Below are positions 23,705-61,276 of a stretch of 64,000 nucleotides of DNA, one piece after another. Origin of the DNA: Planctomycetota bacterium (GTDB lineage: Bacteria; Planctomycetota; PLA2; JAEUHO01); assembly GCA_965222115.1 (NCBI GenBank), contig CBDCTJ010000007.1:2432001-2496000 (forward strand). The letters run 5' to 3'. The number at the start of each line of letters is the position of its first letter. Positions within the stretch are counted from its first letter, which is position 1. A program made the position numbers and the translations under genes. A model generated the notes under the pieces. It did no database searches. It saw only the letters and a list, made by a program, of their open reading frames with translations, and was not told the DNA's origin.

Positions 23705-24223
23705 TTAATGTGAGCCGCGATTCTTTCCAACGCATTGAAGATCATTGTCCCATGCTCCATATTGCCTATCCATTTGGCGAACAACTACGTCATGGGGCAG
23801 GTTTGAAACGCTTGTTCTTGTTTGTCGAAATGCGTGAAATTTGCCCGTACACCGTATCTTTACGAGCGTTCGACTTGGATGGGTATTCACATCGTCAATG
23901 CGATGCACGAACGACTGATCGCGCATATGTGCGCGCGCTGGCATGGCGGTGTCGAGCGTTTCACCGTTCTCACTAAGCACGAGAGCGATGGAAAAGCGAT
24001 TGTAGGGGACGCCGCTCATCGACAACGTCTGAGTAGCGGCACCGTTTTCTGACGCCGAAAGCGTCTTGTGAACCAAAAACCGATCTTACGTCGTTGATGG
24101 ATCCCCATTCTCATCGGCATAGGCGTCGAGCCGCACGCCGCCTCCTCCACCGCCACAGGCGGTGAGTGAGAGCGCAGCGAGCAATACAGGTAGATAGCAA
24201 AGCAGGTTATTTGAGGGATACAT
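23705..24223 (-). pseudogene. Lipoprotein pseudogene with in-frame TAA at codon 46
   Basis: AAGGAG SD, ATG 24223, MYPSNNLLCYLPVLLAALSLTACGGGGGG; TAA at 24086-24088; reading continues in frame into ORF 23705-24076. Confidence 0.7.
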
Positions 24224-48915: not shown

Positions 48916-49257
48916 ATGAAAGTCACCAGCGAATCCCACGGGAACGGATCCGTATTTGTCGTTGAAGGTCACTTGGACATGGGGTCTACCTCAACGCTGC
49001 GCAATGAGTTGCGCGGCGCGCTCAAGCGCAAAAGCACACCGTTGGTCGTGGATCTCACGGATGTCGCGTTTATTGATTCAAGCGGCCTCGCCACGTTGAT
49101 TGAGGCGCTGCAGTCGGTCTCGCACTATGGGGGTCGCATGTGCCTGTGTGGTTTGCGGCCTGAAGTCAAGCGCCTATTTGAACTTGCCCATCTCGGAAGC
49201 ATTTTCGAGGTAAAGGAAACCCGCGACCAAGCGCTTGGTCTCACGGGCCCCGCGTAG
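48916..49257 (+). CDS. STAS-domain anti-sigma antagonist
   Basis: VDLTDVAFIDSSGLATL. Confidence 0.9.
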   Translation: MKVTSESHGNGSVFVVEGHLDMGSTSTLRNELRGALKRKSTPLVVDLTDVAFIDSSGLATLIEALQSVSHYGGRMCLCGLRPEVKRLFELAHLGSIFEVKETRDQALGLTGPA

Positions 49258-49375
49258 CCATTTTCAAAATCGATTTAGATCAGGGGCAGAGAGAAACCGC
49301 CGAGTGAACTTGTGTAAGGAGTAGCGTTTTGCCGCACGGTCGCTCGCGCGTTCCGCTCGGGAAGGGACCACACTC

Positions 49376-50188
49376 GTGGCGGTCGTAGGCGGCATAGGGC
49401 GGTGGATTGAGGCCCTTGGTGGAACGGTTCTAGGGACGGTCCAGTTCCTTGGCGGCCTCGGGCTGATGGTGCGCCAGAGTGTGGGCCATCTTGTGTTGGG
49501 TCCCTTTCGCGGCCAAGGTGTACCGCGTCGCGCGTTCATGACGCAGGCTGTGCGCGCCGGCCCCAAGTCGTTGTTCATCGTATGCATCATTAACTTCTTC
49601 GTCGGCGTGATTCTCGCGTTGATCGGTGGCGACATTCTCAATCTGCTCGGATTCAAAGAGTATGTGGGCGACCTCATCGGCGTGGGAATCGTCATGGAAC
49701 TCGGCCCGCTGCTAACAGGCATCATTATGACCGGCTACATCGGGGCGGCGTTCGCTGCCGAGATTGGGACCATGGTGGTGTCGGAGGAGATTGTCGCCTT
49801 GCGCACCATGGCGCTCAATCCCGTGCGTGTCATCGTTGCGCCACGCATGTTGGCCGTGCTCTTTATGGTTCCCTGCGTGACGATTATCGGAAATGCCGTG
49901 GGCATTCTCGGCGGCGCAAGCGTGGCTCATTCCGTGTTGGATGTATCCCCCAATACGTTTTGGGAGCATGTGTGGGCCACGTTGGCGCCGCGTCAAGTTT
50001 GGCGTGGACTCGCCAAGAGCGTGGTATTTGCGCTTCTCATCGGCGCCATTGGTTGTTTTAAGGGCTTCCGGGTGTCGGGCGGTGCGGAGGGCGTGGGCCG
50101 GGCCACCACCAGCGCGGTGGTGACTACCATTATCAGCATTGTGATCAGCGATGGGATCCTAAACTATTTGCTGCTCTATCGTTTGTAG
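49376..50188 (+). CDS. mlaE: MlaE-family lipid ABC transporter permease
   Basis: ELGPLLTG, AAEIGTM..SEEI.AL, GGAEGVGRATTSAVV. Confidence 0.92.
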   Translation: MAVVGGIGRWIEALGGTVLGTVQFLGGLGLMVRQSVGHLVLGPFRGQGVPRRAFMTQAVRAGPKSLFIVCIINFFVGVILALIGGDILNLLGFKEYVGDLIGVGIVMELGPLLTGIIMTGYIGAAFAAEIGTMVVSEEIVALRTMALNPVRVIVAPRMLAVLFMVPCVTIIGNAVGILGGASVAHSVLDVSPNTFWEHVWATLAPRQVWRGLAKSVVFALLIGAIGCFKGFRVSGGAEGVGRATTSAVVTTIISIVISDGILNYLLLYRL

Positions 50189-50206
50189 GGCACGCGGAGC
50201 ACAACC

Positions 50207-51646
50207 GTGTCGATGTACACAAAGAACGCCGAGTTCAAGGCCGGGGTCGTGGTCCTGCTTGCCATTCTTGGGTTCTTGGCCTTCCTGTACTTCGCCGGTG
50301 GATCCGAGAGCCCGTGGCGCGACTACCGCTATGTGCAGTTGCGCTTTCAACCGGGTTTCCTCGCACCCCGTCCTGGCGATCCCGTTCAAATGAATGGCGT
50401 TACGGTGGGGCGCGTTCACCATGTGAAGCAGCGGGAAGAGGTCCGTCGCAATGAGCAGTTGACGGTTGCCGATCGACGCAAGTTGGGCTTGAGGGCGGAT
50501 GAGCCGGGCGAAGTGCGCGAAATGTATGTGCTGGCGACCGTAAAGATGCCCGCCGATCAGGTAATACCGCAGGGCTCGGCGGCACTGATCGATCAGAACA
50601 TTGCGGGTGTGCGTCAACTGTCCCTTTTGCCGGGTGCCTCCACGGAAAACCTCACCGACGAACAGACCGCGTCGTCGCCGCTTCCGGCCAGCGAAGCGCC
50701 AGGCATCAAAGACGTCACCACCAATCTCAATGAACTGGTTGGCAAGTTGGACACGTTGGTGGTGAGTGCCGACGAAGTGTTGGTGGAGGCGCGCGACCTC
50801 ATCGCGACCGTGCAGGAAAAGGTGGACGCGCTCGACACCGCCACAGTCAACGATGAAGTGAAGGTCATCGCCAAGGCGGTGCGCGAAGCCATTGAGTCGT
50901 TGAAGGCTCGATTGGAGAGAATCGGTGCCAACATCGAAGAGGCGTCCGTTGATGCCAAGGCGATGACCAAGTCGGGCGTCGAGACGGTGGACGCCATTCG
51001 CGATGGGTTGGACAAGAATCTCGCTTCCCTCGAAGGCGTTATCACTCGACTCGACAAGATTATTGCCAAGGCCGAACCGCAGGTCGATAGCTTTCTTGTG
51101 AGCATGAACAACATGTCGCGCGACATGGAATCGGCCGCTAAGAACTTCAAATCTTTGTCCACCGAGTTTGCTGGAATCGGGCCCGACGCGAGGCGCATAC
51201 TCAATGATCTCGGCGTCGAGTTTGACGATGTAGTCAATACGTTGGGTGACATGGCGCGCAATCTGCTCGACGCCTCCGAGGATTTACGCGCCCGGCCCTG
51301 GCTGCTCACCAATAAGCCCGATCCGGGCGAGATCGCGTTCGACAACTTGCGCGCGGCGTCTCGCAACTACATGAAGGCGATGGCCGGTGCGCAACGTGCC
51401 ATGGTCAAACTGAGTCAGTTGCTGGCGCGCCCCGATGTCCACGATCCGCGTGTGCGCGCCATGATTCACGCCGCCATGCAGAACTACCAGGCATCCCTGG
51501 AGAAGTACCGCCGCGACGAAGCGCGCTGGACTCGCCTTTTTGAGACGGCGCCCAAGGGCGAGGGTGCCCGTGTCCCCCCACGCAATCCGGCACGCAGTGC
51601 ACACCCCGGAAATGCAAACCCCGGGAATGGCCAGCCGGGACGTTGA
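50207..51646 (+). CDS. MlaD/MCE-domain protein with long helical region
   Basis: N-terminal TM (EFKAGVVV), GDPVQMNGVTVGRV, long coiled coil, PWLL. Confidence 0.85.
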   Translation: MSMYTKNAEFKAGVVVLLAILGFLAFLYFAGGSESPWRDYRYVQLRFQPGFLAPRPGDPVQMNGVTVGRVHHVKQREEVRRNEQLTVADRRKLGLRADEPGEVREMYVLATVKMPADQVIPQGSAALIDQNIAGVRQLSLLPGASTENLTDEQTASSPLPASEAPGIKDVTTNLNELVGKLDTLVVSADEVLVEARDLIATVQEKVDALDTATVNDEVKVIAKAVREAIESLKARLERIGANIEEASVDAKAMTKSGVETVDAIRDGLDKNLASLEGVITRLDKIIAKAEPQVDSFLVSMNNMSRDMESAAKNFKSLSTEFAGIGPDARRILNDLGVEFDDVVNTLGDMARNLLDASEDLRARPWLLTNKPDPGEIAFDNLRAASRNYMKAMAGAQRAMVKLSQLLARPDVHDPRVRAMIHAAMQNYQASLEKYRRDEARWTRLFETAPKGEGARVPPRNPARSAHPGNANPGNGQPGR

Positions 51647-51825
51647 CTCGGATTCTCCCGAATCAGAACCATCGGACCCGAGACATCAGGACGCGGCATC
51701 GATGATCGATTCGGCCGTGGTATCGGCGAGACGATTGTTGTGCATCTCGTACGGGGTTCTATGCTCCCAAGCCGATGAACGCCCTCACGAGGGTGCATCG
51801 ATCCAACATCAACAAGGAGAGCGCA

Positions 51826-52758
51826 ATGCGCAAGGTAGGCATGATCGGCGGTGGCAATGTAGGTGCCACATGCGCGTATCAAATCGCATCCGCCGGAATG
51901 GCCGACGTGGCGATTTACGACATTTTGGAAGGCGTCCCCGCTGGCAAAGCGCTGGACATGTCGCAAGTTGGTCCGGTCTTCGGATTTGACGGCGCGATCA
52001 CCGGAAGCCACGACGTGTCCATCATTGAGGGCTCCGAAGTTGTGGTGGTAACGGCAGGCTTTCCTCGCAAGGCCGGCATGGATCGTATGGACCTCCTGCG
52101 AAAAAACGTCGCGATTGCGCGCGCGAGCGGTGAAGCACTCAAGAAGTACGCACCCAACGCTGTGGTGATCGTGGTCACCAATCCACTTGATGTCATGACG
52201 TGGGTCATTCAGCAGTCCAGCGGTTTTCCGGCCGAGCGTGTCATCGGCATGGCGGGCGTGCTCGATTCTTCCCGATTCTCAACATTCATTCGCATGGAAC
52301 TTGGCGTGACGCCTAAGGATGTGAAAGCGATGGTGCTTGGTGGGCACGGCGACAGCATGGTTCCGCTTCCGCGGTTTAGTACCGTGAACGGTGTTCCGAT
52401 CACCGAACTCATGTCGGCCGAGCGCATTGAGGCGCTTAGCGACCGCACGCGTAAGGGCGGCGCCGAGATCGTGAAGCTACTTGGTACGGGAAGTGCGTTT
52501 TATGCGCCTGGTGCCAGCGCGGCCATCATGGCCGAGGCCGTACTCAATGACAGCAAGCGCTTGCTTCCCTGCAGTTGTTGGCTCAGCGGTCAGTACGGCA
52601 TCAACGACGTCTACCTCGGCGTGCCTGCCAAGCTCGGCAAGGGCGGCGTCGAGGAGATCATCGAACTCGACCTTCGTGACGACGAACTGAAGGCGCTCAA
52701 AGCATCGGCGGCAACAGTGGCCAAGGGCATTTCCGACGTTCAATCGTTGGATGCGTAG
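51826..52758 (+). CDS. mdh: Malate dehydrogenase (LDH-like)
   Basis: IGGGNVG, TAGFPRKAGMDRMDLL, VTNPLD, LDSSRF, GGHGD. Confidence 0.95.
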   Translation: MRKVGMIGGGNVGATCAYQIASAGMADVAIYDILEGVPAGKALDMSQVGPVFGFDGAITGSHDVSIIEGSEVVVVTAGFPRKAGMDRMDLLRKNVAIARASGEALKKYAPNAVVIVVTNPLDVMTWVIQQSSGFPAERVIGMAGVLDSSRFSTFIRMELGVTPKDVKAMVLGGHGDSMVPLPRFSTVNGVPITELMSAERIEALSDRTRKGGAEIVKLLGTGSAFYAPGASAAIMAEAVLNDSKRLLPCSCWLSGQYGINDVYLGVPAKLGKGGVEEIIELDLRDDELKALKASAATVAKGISDVQSLDA

Positions 52759-52774
52759 CGAGAGTTTCTGAATC

Positions 52775-53800
52775 ATGATTCGTGCCGTCATTCTCGGTGG
52801 GACCGGCTATGGCGGCATGGAACTGCTGCGCTACTTGCTGGGTCACGCAGACGTGGAGGTTGTGGCGCTCACGAGCCGAACCGACGAGCGTCCGGTCGGT
52901 GAGCGCTACCCACATTTGCGTGGGCTGACGGATCTTCACTTTACGAAGGAATCCGAAGGCGCACTTGAGACGTTGGCGGACGCATGCGACGTCGTGTTTT
53001 CGGCCAAGCCACACGGCGTTGGTTGCCATGAATTGCCGGCGCTCTTAGCCGCAGCACCCGAAGTGCGCGTGATCGACCTCTCAGGCGACTTTCGACTTCG
53101 AGACGCGGCGCTGTATCCAACGTGGTACGACTACGAGCATCCGTACCCCGCATGGTTGAGCAAGTCGGTGTATGGCCTCGCCGAGTGTGGACTGCGCGAC
53201 GCGATTTCGCGCGCGCGACTGGTCGCCAATCCCGGGTGCCACGCAAGCGCAACGGTGTTGGCGCTTTGGCCCGCGGTGGACGCCGGGCTGGTGAAGGGGC
53301 GCGTATCGGTTGTGAGTGTGACAGGATCGTCCGGTTCGGGGAGTTCCCCCAAAGCGGGCACGCACCATCCCGAGCGGTTTTCCAACTTTAAGGCGTATCG
53401 TCCGCTCAAACATCAACACCTGCCCGAAGTCGTTCAAGCGTTGGGTGGCGATACTCCCGTTGACTTCGTTCCCCACTCGGCGCCGGTTGCGCGGGGCATA
53501 CATGTGACGGCCTTTTTGCCGGTGGACAACGCGAATCTAGAGACCGTCATGTCGGCGTACGACGACCGCTACGCCGAGGAACCGTTCATGCGTTTACGTG
53601 AAGGCACGGTTGAGTTGCGCGCCTCCATGGGTACAAACTTCGTGGACATTGGCGTTACCGTGGCAGATGGCATTGCGGTGATTGCACTCGCGCAGGACAA
53701 TCTCGGCAAGGGGATGGCCGGTTCAGCCGTGCAAAATATGAACATTATGTTCGGCCTTCCTGAAATGAGCGGCCTGGATCGCGGAGGACCTGGACTTTGA
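52775..53800 (+). CDS. argC: N-acyl-gamma-glutamyl-phosphate reductase
   Basis: GGTGYGG, IDLSGDFRL, ANPGC, HQHLPE, DNLGKG..G.AVQNMN. Confidence 0.93.
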   Translation: MIRAVILGGTGYGGMELLRYLLGHADVEVVALTSRTDERPVGERYPHLRGLTDLHFTKESEGALETLADACDVVFSAKPHGVGCHELPALLAAAPEVRVIDLSGDFRLRDAALYPTWYDYEHPYPAWLSKSVYGLAECGLRDAISRARLVANPGCHASATVLALWPAVDAGLVKGRVSVVSVTGSSGSGSSPKAGTHHPERFSNFKAYRPLKHQHLPEVVQALGGDTPVDFVPHSAPVARGIHVTAFLPVDNANLETVMSAYDDRYAEEPFMRLREGTVELRASMGTNFVDIGVTVADGIAVIALAQDNLGKGMAGSAVQNMNIMFGLPEMSGLDRGGPGL

Positions 53801-55059
53801 CCGCGAAGACCAATGAACCGTTGAATCCAAACGAGTCTCTGGATCCAAGAGGGGCGCGCCAACAGTTGGAAGGCGCCATTGGCGCCCTTCCACAAGAAAC
53901 GCCGGCCGTCACCGCCTTGGAAGATCGCTATCAAATAAAGACCTACGCCAAGTGGGGCTTGGCGCTTGCCGCAGGCAAAGGTGCGTGGGTGGAAGACGTC
54001 ACAGGGCGACGATTCCTGGACTTGTACGGCGGGCACTGCGTGGCCCTCGTGGGGCATTGCCATCCCACCCTTGTTACCGCGGTGCAGGCCCAGTGCGAGC
54101 GGTTGATGTTTTATAGCAATGCGGTCTACAGCGATGTGCGCGCGGTTGCAGTGGAGCGACTCTGCCAGTTGGCACCGGAACCACTGCAGTCGGTGTTTCT
54201 TTGCAACTCAGGTGCCGAAGCCAATGAGACCGCCCTCAAGATGGCGCGTAAGTTTACGGGGCGCCGCAACGTCGTTTCCATGAACGAGAGCTTCCATGGA
54301 CGCACGCTCGGGTGCCTTGGCGCTACCGGAATTGCCAAGTATCGCGATGCCGCGTACCCGATTCCGACCGAACATCGCTACATACCGCACGGCGACATGG
54401 ACGCGGCCAAAGCGGCGGTGGGCAACGACACGGCGGCAGTCATACTCGAACCGATTCCCTCCATGGGTGGCATTCAGTGCGCGCCCGATGGCTACCTGCC
54501 GGCCCTTCGTGCGCATTGCGATGCCGTCGGCGCGCTGCTGATCTTCGATGAAGTGCAAACGGGCTTTGGGCGCACCGGAACGATATTCTTTGGCGAACAC
54601 GAGCACGTCGTGCCGGATCTGATTACGGGCGCCAAAGGACTTGCCGGTGGATTCCCGGCGGGCGTTACGTTTGTGCACGAACGCATCGCTCGCACAGTGA
54701 AGAACGGCGACCAGGGAACGACATTTGGTGGGGGCCCGCTTGCGAGTGCCGCGATCGCGGCTACCGCCACTTTGATTCGCACGTTGGATCTACCCAAGAA
54801 TGCCGCACACGTTGGCAAACTCCTGTCCCGCGAGCTCAGCGCACTTGAGGGCGTTCAAGCCGTAACGGGTCGCGGTCTTCTGATCGGCATCGATTTGAAT
54901 CGGCCGGCCAAGGCCATCGCGTCGGCTCTCTTCGATGCGGGCATTCTTGTTGGCACGGCGGGAGGGCGTCTCAACCAACTGCGTCTCTTGCCTCCACTGA
55001 CCCTGACAGAAGGCGAAGCCTCAATGTTGATTCCCGCACTTCGTGACGCCTTGGCGTAG
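53797..55059 (+). CDS. argD: Acetyl/succinyl-ornithine aminotransferase
   Basis: NSGAEANE, FHGRT, FDEVQTGFGRTG, AKGLAGG. Confidence 0.9.
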   Translation: MTAKTNEPLNPNESLDPRGARQQLEGAIGALPQETPAVTALEDRYQIKTYAKWGLALAAGKGAWVEDVTGRRFLDLYGGHCVALVGHCHPTLVTAVQAQCERLMFYSNAVYSDVRAVAVERLCQLAPEPLQSVFLCNSGAEANETALKMARKFTGRRNVVSMNESFHGRTLGCLGATGIAKYRDAAYPIPTEHRYIPHGDMDAAKAAVGNDTAAVILEPIPSMGGIQCAPDGYLPALRAHCDAVGALLIFDEVQTGFGRTGTIFFGEHEHVVPDLITGAKGLAGGFPAGVTFVHERIARTVKNGDQGTTFGGGPLASAAIAATATLIRTLDLPKNAAHVGKLLSRELSALEGVQAVTGRGLLIGIDLNRPAKAIASALFDAGILVGTAGGRLNQLRLLPPLTLTEGEASMLIPALRDALA

Positions 55060-55068
55060 AGTTTCGCC

Positions 55069-55107
55069 ATGAGCTACCGTGCACACCGACGACGACACAG
55101 GCGCTAA
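55069..55107 (+). promoter_or_regulatory. Arg-rich leader peptide ORF MSYRAHRRRHRR (putative attenuator of argF')
   Basis: ATG AGC TAC CGT GCA CAC CGA CGA CGA CAC AGG CGC TAA; complementary to 55126-55135 and 55146-55151. Confidence 0.7.
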
Positions 55108-55155
55108 GCCACTATTTTTTTCCGTCCTGTCGTCGAATCTCCTTTGGTGTGAATC

Positions 55156-56199
55156 ATGAAGCCCGCTCCTGCCACGCTCCGGCACGTCCTAAACCTCTAT
55201 GATATGGATTCAGCGCGCTGGAATCGCCTACTTGATCTCTCTGAGTGCATGGCGGGTCCACTGGGTCGCGTCCATCACTTGCGCGGTAAACGTGTAGCGA
55301 TGGTCTTTTTCAATGCGTCGCTACGAACGCGGACCGCACTGGAAGTTGCGTGCTTTGATTTAGGCGCGCACGCCATCAATCTCAACGTGGGCGGTGGTTT
55401 GTGGAGCCTCGAGCATCGCGATGACGTCGAGATGGATGGGCCGCACGCGGAGCATGTGCGTGAAGGTTTTGGTGTGCTTGGTTGCATGACGGATGCCGTG
55501 GGCGTGCGCGTGTTCGCCTCGTTGACGGATGCCACGGAAGACGTGCGCGATCCCGCACTGAATGCCATTGCAGGCGCGTCCCCGGTACCCGTGCTCAATC
55601 TCGAGTCGGCCATGACCCATCCGCATCAGGGCTTGGCGGATGCGCTTACGGTGCGTCGCCGCTATCCCGGTGAACGTGTTCGTATCGCTCTCACGTGGGC
55701 ACCTCACATCAAGCCACTCCCACTCGCTGTGGCTCAGTCTGCGCTCATGGCATTTGCTCGTGAAGGTCACGAGGTGGTAGTGGCTCATCCCAAAGGCTAT
55801 GACCTCGCATCGAGCGCTGTGGAACACGCCAAGCGAATTGCAATGTCGTCGGGCGGAAGTGTGGCGGTTACGCATCAGCAAGACGAAGCATTGAACGGTG
55901 CGCGCGTGGTCTATGCCAAGAGTTGGGGGTCGCCGCAGTTCTACGGCGACGTGGACGCTTCGAAGGCTTCGTTGAGATCGCACGCCGATTGGAAGGTGAA
56001 TCGTTCCAAGATAGCACGGGGCCAAGATGCGGTATTCATGCACTGTCTACCCGTTCGCCGTGGCGTCGTTGTGGATGCCGATGTGCTCGATAGCGAAGCG
56101 AGTGTTGTTTTGGCGCAAGCCGAAGCACGTTTGCATGTTCAGAAAGCAACCCTCATGGACATCTTTGGTGTGGACGTGGGTCGAGGCCAAACGATATGA
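55156..56199 (+). CDS. argF: N-acyl-ornithine carbamoyltransferase (ArgF', probably succinyl-specific)
   Basis: FFNASLRT, W.LE...MDG..AEH, HPHQ, WAPHIKPLP, HCLPVRR. Confidence 0.88.
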   Translation: MKPAPATLRHVLNLYDMDSARWNRLLDLSECMAGPLGRVHHLRGKRVAMVFFNASLRTRTALEVACFDLGAHAINLNVGGGLWSLEHRDDVEMDGPHAEHVREGFGVLGCMTDAVGVRVFASLTDATEDVRDPALNAIAGASPVPVLNLESAMTHPHQGLADALTVRRRYPGERVRIALTWAPHIKPLPLAVAQSALMAFAREGHEVVVAHPKGYDLASSAVEHAKRIAMSSGGSVAVTHQQDEALNGARVVYAKSWGSPQFYGDVDASKASLRSHADWKVNRSKIARGQDAVFMHCLPVRRGVVVDADVLDSEASVVLAQAEARLHVQKATLMDIFGVDVGRGQTI

Positions 56200-57116
56200 A
56201 AGACATTGGTATTCTTCGCGAAGCGCTGCCTTACTTGCGCCGCCACCGACGTCAGACCGTCGTTGTCAAGCTCGGCGGTGAAATAGCGGCCAATCCGCAA
56301 GCCTTGGACATGTTGGCCAAGAGCATTTCGTTGCTCACGCATGTCAACATTCGCATCATTACCGTGCATGGCGGTGGTCCGCAGGCCACCAAGCTTTCGG
56401 AGAAGCTCGGGCTCGAAACCAAGATGGTGCAGGGGCGTCGAATCACGGACGCAGCCACACTCGAGGTAGCCAAGATGGCATTTGCGGGGCAGATCAATGT
56501 GGACATTCTCGGTGCCCTGCGCGTTGCTGGCGTGCGCGCCGTGGGCCTGTCGGGGATCGACGCCGACATACTCATGGCCAGGCGCCGTCCACCTTCCGAG
56601 GTGCAAGACGTGGCTACGGGGCGTAAGGAGATTGTGGACTTTGGGCACGTGGGCGACATTGTGGAGGTGAACACCGAGTTGCTTTCCCTGTTGGTGGAGC
56701 ACGGCTATGTCCCGGTGATTTCGTCGCTGGGTTGTGATGACGATGGCAACGCGCTGAACGTAAACGCCGATACCGTTGCAATGGAGATCGCGCGGGACCT
56801 GCGAGCAAGCAAGCTGATTTCGCTTACAGGCGTCCCTGGGCTCCTGAAAGACAAAGACGATCCCACCAGCGTGATTTCACGATTGAGTCTGAGTGAGGCA
56901 CGCACGGCGCTCAGCGATGGAACGATCCAAGGCGGAATGATTCCCAAGGTGAAGACACTGATTGACGCCGTTGAAGGCGGCGTTCGCGCTGGCATCATAT
57001 TGTCGGGCCTCGATCACGACGCGCTCCTCGCCGAACTGTTTACGGACCGTGGTGTGGGCACGTTGATCGAGCGAGATGTTGATGAGAAGTCCGCGAGCCT
57101 CGGAGCCCCCGCGTGA
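56196..57116 (+). CDS. argB: Acylglutamate kinase
   Basis: VVKLGG, VHGGGPQ, GRRITD, NVNAD, GGMIPK. Confidence 0.93.
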   Translation: MKDIGILREALPYLRRHRRQTVVVKLGGEIAANPQALDMLAKSISLLTHVNIRIITVHGGGPQATKLSEKLGLETKMVQGRRITDAATLEVAKMAFAGQINVDILGALRVAGVRAVGLSGIDADILMARRRPPSEVQDVATGRKEIVDFGHVGDIVEVNTELLSLLVEHGYVPVISSLGCDDDGNALNVNADTVAMEIARDLRASKLISLTGVPGLLKDKDDPTSVISRLSLSEARTALSDGTIQGGMIPKVKTLIDAVEGGVRAGIILSGLDHDALLAELFTDRGVGTLIERDVDEKSASLGAPA

Positions 57117-58183
57117 AGAACGTGACGGAACTACTTCAGGCGATCGTACGCATTCCCTCCGTTTCTGGGGAAGAGCACGCGTGCCGCGACTTTCTCGTTG
57201 ACTGGCTAAAAGACCAGGGCGTCAAGGCGTGGTCGTCGGGGCGTAATGTCTTGGCGACCGTGGAGGGCAAGCCATCCGCCCGTGATCGTGGCCTTCTATT
57301 GCTTACCCACATCGACGTGGTTCCTGTGGGGGATGGGTGGACACGAGATCCATGGGATGGCGCGCTTGAGGACGGATTCGTGTTCGGTCGTGGTTCCAAC
57401 GACGCCAAGTCAAGCGCTGCGTCGATGGCGTGGGTCGCGGCTCATGTCGACCCGGCACACATTGAGGGCCGCTTGGTTGTTGCGCTGGTTTGCGATGAGG
57501 AAACGGGCGGCGAAGGCATTGAAGTGTGTCGCGACGAGTTGCCTGCGTTCCAAGCGAGTGTGGTGGGGGAACCTACGGAACTCGATGTATGTCCGGGGCA
57601 ACGTGGTTTGTTTCGCGCAACGATTGTTGAACGCGGCAAACAGTGTCATGCAAGTCGGCCTTGGGAGGGCGCCAACGCAATTGACATGGCTGCTCGCGAT
57701 ATTGCCGCCATACACGAAATGGACTTGGGTGCCGCCGACGATCTGTTGGGTCCGGCAACGCTTCAAGTGACGGTGATCCAAGGTGGTACGCGACCCAATG
57801 TGTTGCCGGGAGAATGCACATTGGAACTCGACGGTCGCCCGTCGCCCACGTTTGACAATCAGGCGATGGAGCGTGCATTGAACGAAATCGCGAAGGGTGA
57901 CGTGACCATTCGCAGCAATCGCTTTTTTCCGGTGCGTACGGCCAATGATGAGGAAATCGTTCGTATTGCTGTTGAGTCAAGTCCCACGGGTAACGTCCGT
58001 GGGTTCGGCGGCGTGTCGGATCTCTTTCATGTGAGCCATCATCCCGGTGTCGTCATGGGCCCCGGCACCAGTGCGGCGAGTCATGCTGCCGATGAGTCGG
58101 TCGCCGTAGAACAGCTCGATAAGGCTGTCGTCGCATACGAAAGCATCGTTCGTGCATACTTGGCCCCGGGAGGGCGCGCATAG
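57113..58183 (+). CDS. argE: M20 deacylase (ArgE-like)
   Basis: THIDVVP, GRGSNDAK, DEE, GEPT, HAADE; in the arg cluster. Confidence 0.85.
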   Translation: MKNVTELLQAIVRIPSVSGEEHACRDFLVDWLKDQGVKAWSSGRNVLATVEGKPSARDRGLLLLTHIDVVPVGDGWTRDPWDGALEDGFVFGRGSNDAKSSAASMAWVAAHVDPAHIEGRLVVALVCDEETGGEGIEVCRDELPAFQASVVGEPTELDVCPGQRGLFRATIVERGKQCHASRPWEGANAIDMAARDIAAIHEMDLGAADDLLGPATLQVTVIQGGTRPNVLPGECTLELDGRPSPTFDNQAMERALNEIAKGDVTIRSNRFFPVRTANDEEIVRIAVESSPTGNVRGFGGVSDLFHVSHHPGVVMGPGTSAASHAADESVAVEQLDKAVVAYESIVRAYLAPGGRA

Positions 58184-59610
58184 TGGCTGTCGAGCGATCA
58201 AAGAAACGATCAAAGAAACGATCGACGAAGAAGGGCGATCCCTTGCGAGGACGGTTTTCTGAACACACGGCCGAGGCGCTCGATCGCATCAATCGGTCCT
58301 ACCCCATCGATCGTCGCCTCTGGCGCGAAGACATTGAGGGCTCGCTCGCTCATGCGCGCATGCTGGGTGCAAAGGGCATTTTGAGTCAGGCATCGGTGAA
58401 ACGCATCGTGAAAGGCCTCCTAACGATTCACGGGGAGTTTGAAGCCCGTACGTTCAAGGCGTGTGCAACCGACGAGGACATTCACATGGCCGTCGAACGT
58501 CGCCTCGTCGAGTTGATTGGCGACGACGGTGCACGTCTCCATACGGGTCGCAGCCGCAACGATCAAGTGGCGACGGATTTGGAATTGTACTGCGCGCGGG
58601 CTGCCAAGCGTATTCAGGACGGGATTCGCGACGTGCAGGCGGCATTGGTTTCCGCCGCGACGGACGTGGATGACGCACTGGTGCCGTTCTATACCCATAT
58701 GCAACGTGCCCAGCCCATCGTCATGGCTCACGTGTTGCTTGCCTACGTAGAAATGCTTCAGCGTGATACGGACGCGTGTGCGTATGACCTCAATGCGTGC
58801 CCACTCGGGTCCGGCGCCGGGGCGGGCACAACCTATCCAATCGACCGCGCCATGACCGCCAAAGCGCTCGGTTTCCGTGGACCGTCTCGCAACAGTCTTG
58901 TTGGCGTGTCGTCGCGGCAAAATCTTGCCCGGCTACTATCAGGCTTTGCCGCGACCGCTACGACGCTGTCGCGCCTGGGTGGCGACATCATTTTATGGAC
59001 GACGCGCGAGTTCGGTTTTGCTCGTCTTGGTGACGATGTGTCAACGGGCTCAAGCATCATGCCGCAAAAGCGCAATCCCGATGGCGCGGAGCTTCTGCGA
59101 GGCAAGGCATCGCGAGTGATTGGCGCACTTCAGCGCGTGTTTGAGATTCAACGCGGGTTGCCGATGGGGTACTTCAAAGATCTCCAAGAAGACAAAGCGG
59201 CGCTCTTTGATGCTGAAGACACATTGCTCGACATGTTGGCCGTGGCATCCGCGATGATGCGCAGCATCGACTTTGATCGAGTGCGCATGGAGGCCGCGGT
59301 AGCGGAACCATCGGGGTATCTCATGGCGACGGAAGCCGCGGACTACCTTGTGTCTCGCGGTGTGTCCTTTCGCGAAGCCCATGAAGCGGTTGGCGCCCTC
59401 GTTCGTCTGGCCGAGACTCGGGACGTAGGGCTGGAAGCGCTCGACATCGACGACTTTAGGCGGCTGCATAGGAAGTTTGATGACGAGGTATTCACGGTAT
59501 TGGATCCCTTGACCGCCGTTAGACGTCGTCGAGCGATTGGGGGACCCTCCCCAGCCAACGTGCGTCGCGAACTTGCTCGTTGGCGCAAACGAATTGCCTC
59601 CTCCCACTAA
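58183..59610 (+). CDS. argH: Argininosuccinate lyase
   Basis: EDIHM, HTGRSRNDQ, THMQRAQP, GSSIMPQKRNPD. Confidence 0.95.
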   Translation: MAVERSKKRSKKRSTKKGDPLRGRFSEHTAEALDRINRSYPIDRRLWREDIEGSLAHARMLGAKGILSQASVKRIVKGLLTIHGEFEARTFKACATDEDIHMAVERRLVELIGDDGARLHTGRSRNDQVATDLELYCARAAKRIQDGIRDVQAALVSAATDVDDALVPFYTHMQRAQPIVMAHVLLAYVEMLQRDTDACAYDLNACPLGSGAGAGTTYPIDRAMTAKALGFRGPSRNSLVGVSSRQNLARLLSGFAATATTLSRLGGDIILWTTREFGFARLGDDVSTGSSIMPQKRNPDGAELLRGKASRVIGALQRVFEIQRGLPMGYFKDLQEDKAALFDAEDTLLDMLAVASAMMRSIDFDRVRMEAAVAEPSGYLMATEAADYLVSRGVSFREAHEAVGALVRLAETRDVGLEALDIDDFRRLHRKFDDEVFTVLDPLTAVRRRRAIGGPSPANVRRELARWRKRIASSH

Positions 59611-59731
59611 GCAGGGCCCTTGGACTCATCGACGCGCAATCGATAGGTCCTCGACGCGGACTCGACAATGACGGAGACGCCCTTCACCTCGTGCATCTTG
59701 GCGTACACTGGGGACTGGAGACGACGTCCCG

Positions 59732-61276
59732 ATGCGATCCACACAATCCTCATCCCCTGCCATTCGTAGCGGGCGCCTCTTGCTGGTGTCGCTTCAGGTG
59801 GTTTTGGCGGCAACCCTCGCTGCCTGCGGTGGCGGAGGTGGTGGGAGCGCAGATGTCATCACCTTCTACTTGGCCGACACCACGCCTCGTGATGGCCACG
59901 TCAATGTACCGACCAATCAGATCATTAGTTTGGTCTTCAACAAAGACGTTGATCCGCTGACGGTTACTCCCTCGTCACTGTCTATCGTTGCCAACGATGC
60001 CGGGGCGATTCAGGGAACGCTAACGCAGTCACAGACTCGGCCCCGAGAACTGCGGTGGGTGCCGTCCGAACTCATGGTGGCAGGGGAACGTCACTTTTGC
60101 ACCGTGTCGAGCGGGTTACGTTCCGTCGATGGCGAGGCGCTTTCCGGTGCCACGCAGTTTGAGTTCCATACCATTGGCGGTTCGACCGGCCCCCCGATCC
60201 CCGATCCAACGCGGCTTCGGCGAACCATTGGATCGATGAACGAAGGCCGGCAGTCACACCGCGCCACGCTACTAACTGATGGCCGCGTTTTGGTTACGGG
60301 TGGTTTCGATAGCGGATCGCACGCAACCGATACGGCCGAGTTGTATCTGCCGTTCAACGACACGTTTATCAATACGTCCAACGAGATGCTGACTGAACGC
60401 GCGAGCCATGCATCCGTACGACTTGCAAATGGACATGTGCTCATTTGCGGTGGATTCCGTCAGCAGAGTGGAAGTACGTTGACCGCCCTGGCGACGGCCG
60501 AGGTATACAATCCTGCGTCCAACACGTTTGCGCCGGTGGGCGACATGGCGGTGGAACGCGCCAACCACACGGCAACACTGTTGGACGATGGGCGCGTGCT
60601 GATCGCCGGCGGAAGCACCTACGTGTCGGGCTCGTTGACCGACCACATTACTGCCGAGATCTACGATCCCGGAACGTCAACATTTGCGCTCTTATCCGAA
60701 GACATGCTGCACACACGCAGCAGCCATGTGGCGCTGAAACGATCCGACGGTGACGTTGCACTCTTTGGCGGAAGCCAAGGCGACCTGCGCGTGGGTGTCT
60801 TTGATCCCACCACCGATTCGTTTACCAGCTTGGGAATTCCACCATCGGCGTCGGCACAGTTTGGTGCCGCGGCAGCCCTGTTCCCGAGCGGCGGTATTTC
60901 CGTTGCAGGTGGCAGCGTGCGCGGCGATGTCTTTCATTTGCGTGACGGTGAGACCTTTGTCTTCAATACCGGTAGCCCGCTGTGGCGTGCACGCTCGTAT
61001 GCGACGTCCAGTGTGATTGCACCCGACACGCTCATGGTTGTGGGTGGCATCGACTTTTCACGCGGTGGTTTGATTGAGTCGTCGGTAGATATCATTGTTG
61101 AAGGCGGCGTTGGCGGTAGTCGCACCTACGCCACGAGTATGCGTTTCCCAACAGGCATGGCGGCACATACGGCGACGAAACTGGCGAATGGTGATGTGCT
61201 TTTCTGTGGCGGACTCGATCCAGCGGGCGTGGCAAGTTACAACGCCGCATATATTTACGAAGTGCCAACCGAGTAG
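59732..61276 (+). CDS. Lipoprotein with Ig-like (Big_5-like) domain and Kelch repeats
   Basis: Lipobox LAAC-GGGGG; repeated HTATLLDDGRVLIAGG...AEIYDP. Confidence 0.85.
   Translation: MRSTQSSSPAIRSGRLLLVSLQVVLAATLAACGGGGGGSADVITFYLADTTPRDGHVNVPTNQIISLVFNKDVDPLTVTPSSLSIVANDAGAIQGTLTQSQTRPRELRWVPSELMVAGERHFCTVSSGLRSVDGEALSGATQFEFHTIGGSTGPPIPDPTRLRRTIGSMNEGRQSHRATLLTDGRVLVTGGFDSGSHATDTAELYLPFNDTFINTSNEMLTERASHASVRLANGHVLICGGFRQQSGSTLTALATAEVYNPASNTFAPVGDMAVERANHTATLLDDGRVLIAGGSTYVSGSLTDHITAEIYDPGTSTFALLSEDMLHTRSSHVALKRSDGDVALFGGSQGDLRVGVFDPTTDSFTSLGIPPSASAQFGAAAALFPSGGISVAGGSVRGDVFHLRDGETFVFNTGSPLWRARSYATSSVIAPDTLMVVGGIDFSRGGLIESSVDIIVEGGVGGSRTYATSMRFPTGMAAHTATKLANGDVLFCGGLDPAGVASYNAAYIYEVPTE

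Follow-up and report, generated by a model that had tools for sequence, protein, structure and literature searches.

Between the genes argD and argF' of a planctomycete arginine operon lies a gap of 96 nucleotides (nt) that holds a 12-codon open reading frame (ORF), six of whose codons specify arginine; its ATG stands where a transcript from a candidate internal promoter would begin. The operon lies in a window of 64,000 nt, the whole stretch of DNA analysed here (GenBank assembly GCA_965222115.1, contig CBDCTJ010000007.1, forward-strand positions 2,432,001 to 2,496,000; coordinates given below without a locus name are those of the window), and the window belongs to a Planctomycetota genome (G000) of 4.55 Mb in 7 contigs, with a GC content of 59% and a completeness of 90.3%. 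We give a probability of about 0.45 to the reading that the gap combines an internal promoter with a leaderless short ORF that attenuates translation of argF' in response to arginine; argB, the argE-like gene and argH, which follow argF', would then probably be under the control of the attenuator as well. The idea goes back to an original prediction made from the letters of the DNA, whose coordinates for the gap, the short ORF, the -10-like hexamer TAGAGT and the RNA pairings all check out on the sequence. Its central proposal of attenuation by arginine codons is backed by the leaderless geometry, by the layout, by the failure to find ArgR and by CGA-run ORFs elsewhere, but not by the rarity of CGA, by the significance of the fold or by conservation within the family. 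The observation as such is confirmed, and the interpretation as an attenuator is plausible and partly supported, on one genome and two parallels, by what can be read from DNA.

A candidate leaderless leader before argF'

The short ORF (55069-55107, + strand) encodes MSYRAHRRRHRR in 12 codons followed by TAA (55105-55107), and this stop codon lies 48 nt upstream of the co-directional argF' AUG. Six nt before its ATG stands the -10-like hexamer TAGAGT (55057-55062, + strand), a candidate internal promoter in the context G-TAGAGT-N5-C-ATG, which overlaps the stop codon of argD (TAG, 55057-55059). The same spacing recurs across the genome: TANNNT is found at exactly -12 (positions -12 to -7, leaving a spacer of 6 nt) in 84 of 1,225 genes that start with ATG, as compared with 0 to 23 genes at any one of the other offsets between -40 and -6. 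A logo built from 93 genes of this kind reads gGTAnnnT-N5-C-ATG and is devoid of a -35 element, with a G at -13 in 61 and a C at -1 in 57 of them; the upstream context of the short ORF matches this logo exactly (G at -13, C at -1). ORFs of at least 100 amino acids show the same preference, 263 having the 6-nt spacer between TANNNT and ATG versus 70 to 203 at the other spacers from 2 to 12. Since a scan of 51500-56500 for the sigma-70 -35/-10 consensus returned no promoter-like site, the promoter call relies on this -10-only signature of the genome itself. A transcript from TAGAGT would begin at the A of the ATG at 55069, and the leaderless transcript that had been suggested at the outset gains support in silico from the genome-wide geometry of hexamer and ATG, together with the -10-like hexamer of the relatives described below. 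Shine-Dalgarno (SD) words are also common in this genome, with GGAG, GAGG and AGGA peaking at -13 to -9, and its 16S rRNA has the usual end, CCTCCTTT.

The six arginine codons of the short ORF are CGT, three CGA, AGG and CGC; the CGA codons are consecutive (55087-55095, + strand) and form the proposed stall site. Among the 40 short ORFs of 8 to 45 codons that have the leaderless geometry and lie outside gene interiors, it ranks at the top for the share of a single residue (0.55 Arg, the next reaching 0.33), and no other residue-biased leaderless short ORF was found in that set. Arg-rich short ORFs starting with ATG (at least 5 Arg and at least 40% Arg) make up 134 of 32,610 genome-wide (about 0.4%), a density of about one per 68 kb of strand that amounts to about 0.0014 expected per 96 nt; by the same rule about 15 lie outside genes, where the density equals the genome-wide one. 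The upstream regions of argG, the carB fragments, argS and mdh/argC yielded no comparable leaderless Arg short ORF, and the ORF MRRAARAHSWFRCARRSSIDT before argG was dropped for want of a start signal. A scan of the genome for runs of His, Trp, Phe or Cys in short ORFs was too noisy for use. Besides, argD, the short ORF and argF' share one reading frame (55057-55158), in which they are separated by TAG, TAA and TGA; this common frame is probably a coincidence.

The arginine codons also take part in a predicted structure that reaches the start of argF'. Two pairings had been named in the original prediction, and the sequence contains the corresponding inverted repeats, CGACGACA (55090-55097) with TGTCGTCG (55128-55135) and CACACC (55082-55087) with GGTGTG (55146-55151); both recur in the minimum-energy fold, one long imperfect hairpin in which CGUG (55078-55081) also pairs with CAUG (55155-55158), at the start codon of argF'. 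The predicted 5' arm (55078-55103, + strand), composed of CGUG, CACACCGA, CGACGACA and GGCG, lies wholly inside the short ORF; the 3' arm (55123-55158, + strand) is made up of CGUC, UGUCGUCG (55128-55135), UUGGUGUG (55144-55151, containing the SD-like word) and CAUG. A run of seven T residues in the loop region (55115-55121, + strand), read directly from the sequence, is not called a terminator because no credible stem stands ahead of it. In the free 5' 132 nt of the RNA, the predicted probability of being unpaired is 0.00 for the SD-like word and 0.05 for the argF' AUG; masking of 55069-55104, as a stand-in for a ribosome stalled on the CGA run, raises these values to 0.28 and 0.56, respectively. 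As masking opens the argF' AUG in the prediction, the layout fits translational attenuation. No intrinsic terminator was found in the gap (five terminator-like sites in 51500-56500, none of them in 55060-55155), and a scan of 49000-60000 with Rfam 15 gave no match at E<=1.

Repression by ArgR at ARG boxes is the usual mode of arg control in bacteria, and arginine biosynthesis is taught as being controlled by ArgR. The ArgR domains PF02863 and PF01316 have no match in the present genome, its completeness of 90.3% leaving absence unproven, while the same models match in 8 and 9 of 14 control genomes; the search for argR that had been proposed at the outset thus ended with neither the N-terminal nor the C-terminal domain being found. 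On the side of decoding, the reading of CGA through an inosine-adenine (I:A) pair is slow, and work on CGA-CGA in yeast agrees with this. The 50 tRNAs found include arginine tRNAs with the anticodons ACG, CCG, TCT and CCT and none with TCG; CGA therefore depends here on the ACG tRNA with its first base converted to inosine, according to the decoding rule given in PMC3711424. The word CGACGACGA accounts for 293 of the 26,750 RRR-coding 9-mers in this genome.

Put together, these elements suggest how the switch could work. RNA polymerase would start at A 55069, some 7 nt downstream of TAGAGT, as the genome-wide geometry leads one to expect, and a 70S ribosome would initiate on the 5' AUG; in read-through transcripts, ribosomes leaving argD could re-initiate 9 nt downstream. 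In the free RNA, the codons at 55078-55103 are predicted by folding to pair with 55123-55158, thereby burying the weak SD-like GGUG and the argF' AUG. If charged tRNA-Arg(ICG) became scarce, the ribosome would dwell on CGA-CGA-CGA with its footprint over the whole 5' arm, and until the stall ended the start of argF' would remain accessible. With arginine plentiful, the ribosome would finish at the UAA and depart, and the hairpin would re-form.

Relatives and CGA runs in other arginine operons

The family comprises 28 other genomes, all of which were examined, and the argD-argF' pair is readable in 23 of them (loci are designated here by L numbers). The gap is shorter than 40 nt in 12 relatives, most of which have abutting or overlapping genes, it measures 41-148 nt in 9, and the remaining 2 have inserted ORFs; in no relative does argF' carry an N-terminal extension. 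An internal promoter before argF' appears to be a family trait, because the -10-like hexamer is kept: among the 14 relatives scored, those whose gap measures 20 nt or more, TANNNT occurs in 7 (as TATCGT, TAAGGT or TATGGT) at no more than 70 nt from the first aligned residue of argF', against a background of 0.0003 per position or about 0.02 expected per gap. In L016, L020 and L022, the hexamer stands slightly further upstream, as judged by eye. The form G-TA(T/A)(C/G)GT is kept in L002, L006, L007, L008, L012, L016, L020, L021, L022 and L030, in gaps that are otherwise 70-83% GC, and L002 and L021, which belong to different genera, have in common a block of 17 letters around the hexamer that resembles, by eye, the sequence of the window. 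The distance to the gene varies: the hexamer lies 9 nt before the argF' start itself in L008, L030 and L007, and L002 and L012 have leaders of 22-37 nt devoid of a short ORF.

Judged from these sequences, the family does not share the short ORF. L021 (the same as L114) does have one in the same gap, encoding MISLTRPSLRSRRRR (L114:2337-2384) and containing the run CGA CGA CGA CGG; its ATG overlaps the TGA of argD, GGAG stands 8 nt upstream, and downstream of it is a strong hairpin with the conserved TATCGT block in its loop. The RRR-encoding ORFs that start with GTG in the gaps of L007 and L018 mean little, because a sequence of 80-83% GC makes them expected.

A count, over all loci compared, of short ORFs that carry an Arg run and lie in a gap before a + strand gene gave 5 of 119 in sense and 4 of 110 in antisense orientation. 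The five sense matches are one conserved ORF of about 16 codons, located in the argC-argD gap of low-GC metagenome contigs (L086:1005-1160, L087:1089-1245, L092:1106-1260, L098:851-1008 and L106:1100-1262), which count as a single lineage because they are 81-87% identical in the region. The peptides follow the pattern ME[RI]xxL[TN][YW]LLRRR[RW] with 0-2 further residues, for example of the MERxxLTYLLRRRR type, and the DNA contains an invariant TTG CGA CGA CGA nGG, in which AGG, CGG or TGG follows the CGA run. After the ORF, directly before argD, comes a AAGGCGAA/TTCGCCTT stem that is likewise conserved, together with a U run, and on this ground the element resembles an arginine leader-peptide transcription attenuator. 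The Rfam scan of L021 and of the low-GC loci gave no match. Of 401 genomes sampled from the order to which L187 belongs, 3 contained the exact Arg-run pattern of the low-GC element, in no case in an arg context, the reversed control pattern being commoner; at the argC-argD site, L187 itself, like L084 and L097, has a small inserted ORF instead.

Across about 190 loci, 8 of the 10 occurrences of CGACGACGA outside called ORFs are in-frame Arg runs of short ORFs in arg gaps; as L114 equals L021, these 8 sites represent 7 distinct places, namely the window, L021/L114 and the five low-GC contigs. No other single argument for a purposeful reading of the runs as arginine codons is as strong as this choice of CGA, common to three lineages. 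It is doubtful, if still worth entertaining, that CGA-run leader peptides constitute a recurrent, undescribed form of arginine sensing in argF'-type arg operons, with independent origins across phyla and differing read-outs, in which CGA was chosen for its I:A wobble through a single ACG tRNA. If so, the planctomycete in which ArgR was not found may employ a leaderless unmasking of argF', and the low-GC Bacteroidota-like lineage may employ a terminator attenuator between argC and argD.

Counter-evidence and rival explanations

A number of results weigh against an arginine-responsive attenuator. Taken as a class, short ORFs show no excess at the leaderless spacing, spacer 6 having 63 of them and the other spacers 66-96, and for this reason the TANNNT-N6-ATG motif alone does not prove use and a single instance may be due to chance. 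Outside genes, RRR-bearing short ORFs abound if any start codon is allowed (358 cases), a frequency that makes Arg-rich composition alone insufficient in a scan of many thousands of windows; about 250,000 windows were scanned, and a coincidence of this size may have turned up among them. The argument from rare codons, as originally put, applies to AGG (3.6% of the arginine codons of the genome) but not to CGA, which is normally used (16.6% of arginine codons, 13.8 per 1000). Folding does yield a hairpin that covers both the SD-like word and the AUG, but its stability is statistically ordinary (z -1.58, with 13 of 200 shuffles equally stable), and of 323 control genes, 9.6% have a ribosome-binding site (RBS) at least as occluded as this one (0.245). 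GGTGTG had been taken for an SD-like sequence, a view that does not sit well with the genome, in which GGAG, GAGG and AGGA are enriched as SD words and GGTG is not.

Comparison with the relatives counts against it as well. The proposed search of relatives for Arg-rich short ORFs brought to light L021 with its CGA run, but this is the only one of 23 relatives with an Arg-run short ORF starting with ATG in the gap, and all of the relatives are distant: neither the GTDB representative set nor the contig collections that were searched contained a genome of the same genus, and the best identity of argF', with metagenome and genome contigs included, is 64%. The fold of L114 (= L021) is not significant (z -0.88). 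Lastly, no RNA is listed among the sequencing runs that carry this DNA; four runs from one study contain identical contigs without variants and are probably the source of the assembly.

These results bear unequally on the explanations that compete with an attenuator. It is somewhat unlikely that the gap is an internal promoter followed by a structured 5' untranslated region in which the ATG and the Arg-rich frame are fortuitous, arginine control being exerted by another protein or elsewhere. Such a view is in keeping with a -10-like hexamer that needs no short ORF in the relatives (L008, L030 and L007, as well as L002 and L012), with the lack of any excess of leaderless short ORFs as a class, with the ordinary structure and with the occurrence of an Arg-run short ORF in only 1 of 23 relatives; it nevertheless requires three coincidences to occur jointly, namely an ATG at the leaderless spacing, a frame with 50% arginine codons that is the top of 40, and a location in an arginine operon, and it leaves unexplained the recurrence of three consecutive CGA codons in arg-gap short ORFs of two other lineages. 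The parallel CGA runs, together with the 6 arginine codons out of 12 and the three wobble-read CGA among them, are equally unexplained if the short ORF is translated but constitutive, unfolding the hairpin and coupling argF' to upstream ribosome traffic in the absence of any arginine sensing, and the 48 nt from the stop codon of the short ORF to the argF' AUG are far for termination-reinitiation. We hold such constitutive coupling to be unlikely, even though any ribosome on 55069-55107 is predicted to open the 5' arm, the mdh-argC junction, with the same pre-start word TGAATCATG and no SD, suggests coupling within the operon, and translation as such unfolds an RBS-sequestering structure in the case of Salmonella speF orf34, according to PMC6386406.

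The origin of the gap provides a further rival. The mdh-argC junction (52756-52777, + strand) matches both of its ends: GCGTAG..AGAGTTTC-TGAATCATG aligns to the ends of 55054-55158 with a single gap of 81 nt, and TGAATCATG is found at 2 of 3,404 predicted gene starts, those of argC and argF'. Because of this alignment and of the confinement of TGAATCATG to two starts, the leader gives the impression of having been inserted into a simple junction, and the 81-nt insert is itself an imperfect inverted repeat. The gap could accordingly be a junction with a palindromic insert that is maybe neutral, a point that tells against regulation; it is quite improbable, however, that a neutral insertion, either left over from a rearrangement or brought in as a small mobile hairpin element, accounts for the 81 nt that separate GAGTTTC from TGAATCATG, with the ORF and the hairpin as its by-products. 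The insert has no second genomic copy, an insertion origin is compatible with a present function, and the three coincidences named above would remain. The idea of a repeat or mobile element was itself rejected after a blastn search of the gap against the genome, which gave no second copy and one match of 18 nt in a coding gene, in a DDDTGA frame. An insertion may tell how the leader arose and not whether it is functional.

The inverted repeat might also be a DNA operator for a repressor directly downstream of the promoter, its arms CGACGACA/TGTCGTCG lying 20-70 bp downstream of the -10-like hexamer; as ArgR was not found, another regulator would be needed if there were no attenuator. A spacing of 30 nt between the arms is, however, long for a dimer operator, the arms were not found upstream of argG, carB or argS, and no candidate for a regulator gene was found adjoining the arg operon, all of which makes an operator highly improbable.

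Operon context and comparison with known systems

On the + strand, the genes follow one another in the order mdh (51775-52758), argC, argD (53797-55059), the 96-nt gap, argF' (55156-56199), argB, a gene for a deacylase of the ArgE/DapE family and argH. The junctions of the operon are overlaps of 1-4 nt with the exception of mdh-argC (16 nt) and argD-argF' (96 nt), and the genes behind argF', all joined by overlaps, extend up to 59610. The product of argF', the gene proposed as controlled, is assigned as N-acetylornithine carbamoyltransferase by NF003384 (354.8 bits, cut-off 288); for argD, the acetylornithine aminotransferase family TIGR00707 is the best family at 356.7 bits, below its cut-off of 410. 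Upstream of argC, mdh has TATGCT 9 nt before its ATG.

Elsewhere in the assembly, carB, encoding the large subunit of carbamoyl-phosphate synthase (G000:C7:565837-569002, - strand), is found in four consecutive pieces in differing frames; these are either assembly frameshifts or a broken gene, and in either case they call for caution with arguments based on frame in other parts of the assembly. Contig C6 (48,116 bases) has a GC content of 0.397 versus 0.55-0.59 in the other six contigs and may be a foreign element, a plasmid, a phage or a binning contaminant. Two short ORFs of leaderless geometry that begin with MSFFF (G000:C1:520990-521100, - strand, and G000:C7:2647970-2648300, + strand) are two copies of a repeated stretch, with a common downstream block of about 50 nt and with genes behind them that have no NCBIfam match; a wider set of leaderless ORFs with amino-acid runs, of which they might have been members, was rejected since they are copies of one repeated element. 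In the window, an Arg/His-rich short ORF (MDPHSHRHRRRAARRLLHRHRR, 24097-24165), located 119 nt before the gene of a 1,155-amino-acid protein with an N-terminal ECF sigma-factor domain, was judged to be a chance occurrence.

Full-text searches, in which subscription journals are thinly covered, found no literature on an Arg-codon leader before arg biosynthesis genes, and a search for leaderless transcription in Planctomycetes gave nothing relevant. If the attenuator is real, it would show how arginine synthesis is controlled in a phylum whose gene regulation is little known and in a genome where ArgR was not found; it would extend the leaderless short-ORF mechanism beyond Actinomycetota, provide in I:A wobble a rationale for the choice of sensor codon, and supply an arginine-responsive part that is compact, at about 90 nt. 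For the annotation of start sites in this lineage, the leaderless signature of the genome (gGTAnnnT-N5-C-ATG without a -35 element) is of use in its own right.

Codon-run attenuators are textbook knowledge for Trp, His, Leu, Thr, Phe and Ile/Val and, more recently, for Cys. In the classical leader-peptide transcription attenuators (trp, his, leu, thr, pheA and ilv), mentioned in 10.1101/834739, as in the candidate, biosynthetic genes are preceded by a short ORF in which cognate codons follow one another, and the position of the ribosome selects between RNA structures, as is proposed for the candidate; the candidate differs from them in having no intrinsic terminator in the gap, a read-out that would be RBS access, no match to an Rfam leader and a predicted leaderless rather than SD-led start. 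The low-GC argC-argD element likewise has a short ORF in an argF'-type operon, with CGA-CGA-CGA followed by AGG, CGG or TGG and with RNA pairing that involves the arginine codons, but it occupies another gap, is about 16 codons long and has a stem and a U run, and from its sequence it looks like a transcription attenuator. The arginine attenuator peptide of fungi responds to free arginine as a nascent chain within the exit tunnel and represses at high arginine by blocking scanning. It resembles the mechanism proposed for the candidate in that an upstream ORF confers arginine-dependent translational control on a gene of the arginine pathway, and differs in being eukaryotic and in that arginine codons are not the sensor. 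ArgR and its ARG boxes serve the same end, an arginine-dependent control of arg genes, by way of a protein repressor acting on DNA.

Closer in mechanism is orf34 of Salmonella speF, in which, according to PMC6386406, consecutive arginine codons report arginine through ribosome pausing and translation unfolds a structure that sequesters the RBS; consecutive arginine codons in an upstream ORF are common to both systems, and for the candidate an RBS-sequestering structure is predicted. In that account, orf34 controls ornithine decarboxylase, acts also through Rho and RNase G, carries two arginine codons in a conserved peptide of 34 codons and responds to ornithine in addition, all of which set it apart. 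In mycobacteria, leaderless polycysteine short ORFs are translational attenuators (Canestrari et al., 10.1101/834739). The candidate has, like them, consecutive cognate codons before genes of the metabolism concerned, and it would also resemble them in a leaderless short ORF coming first, in translational control rather than termination, and in a duplex, predicted here, of the short-ORF RNA with the RBS of the next gene. The planctomycete candidate differs in relying on Arg rather than Cys, in belonging to Planctomycetota rather than Actinomycetota and in its position at a candidate internal promoter within a longer string of genes; it is, moreover, a single genomic instance known from its sequence, in comparison with a mycobacterial regulon of several loci. 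By analogy with that system, a leaderless arginine attenuator for arg biosynthesis would be a plausible variant of the known leaderless short-ORF mechanism.

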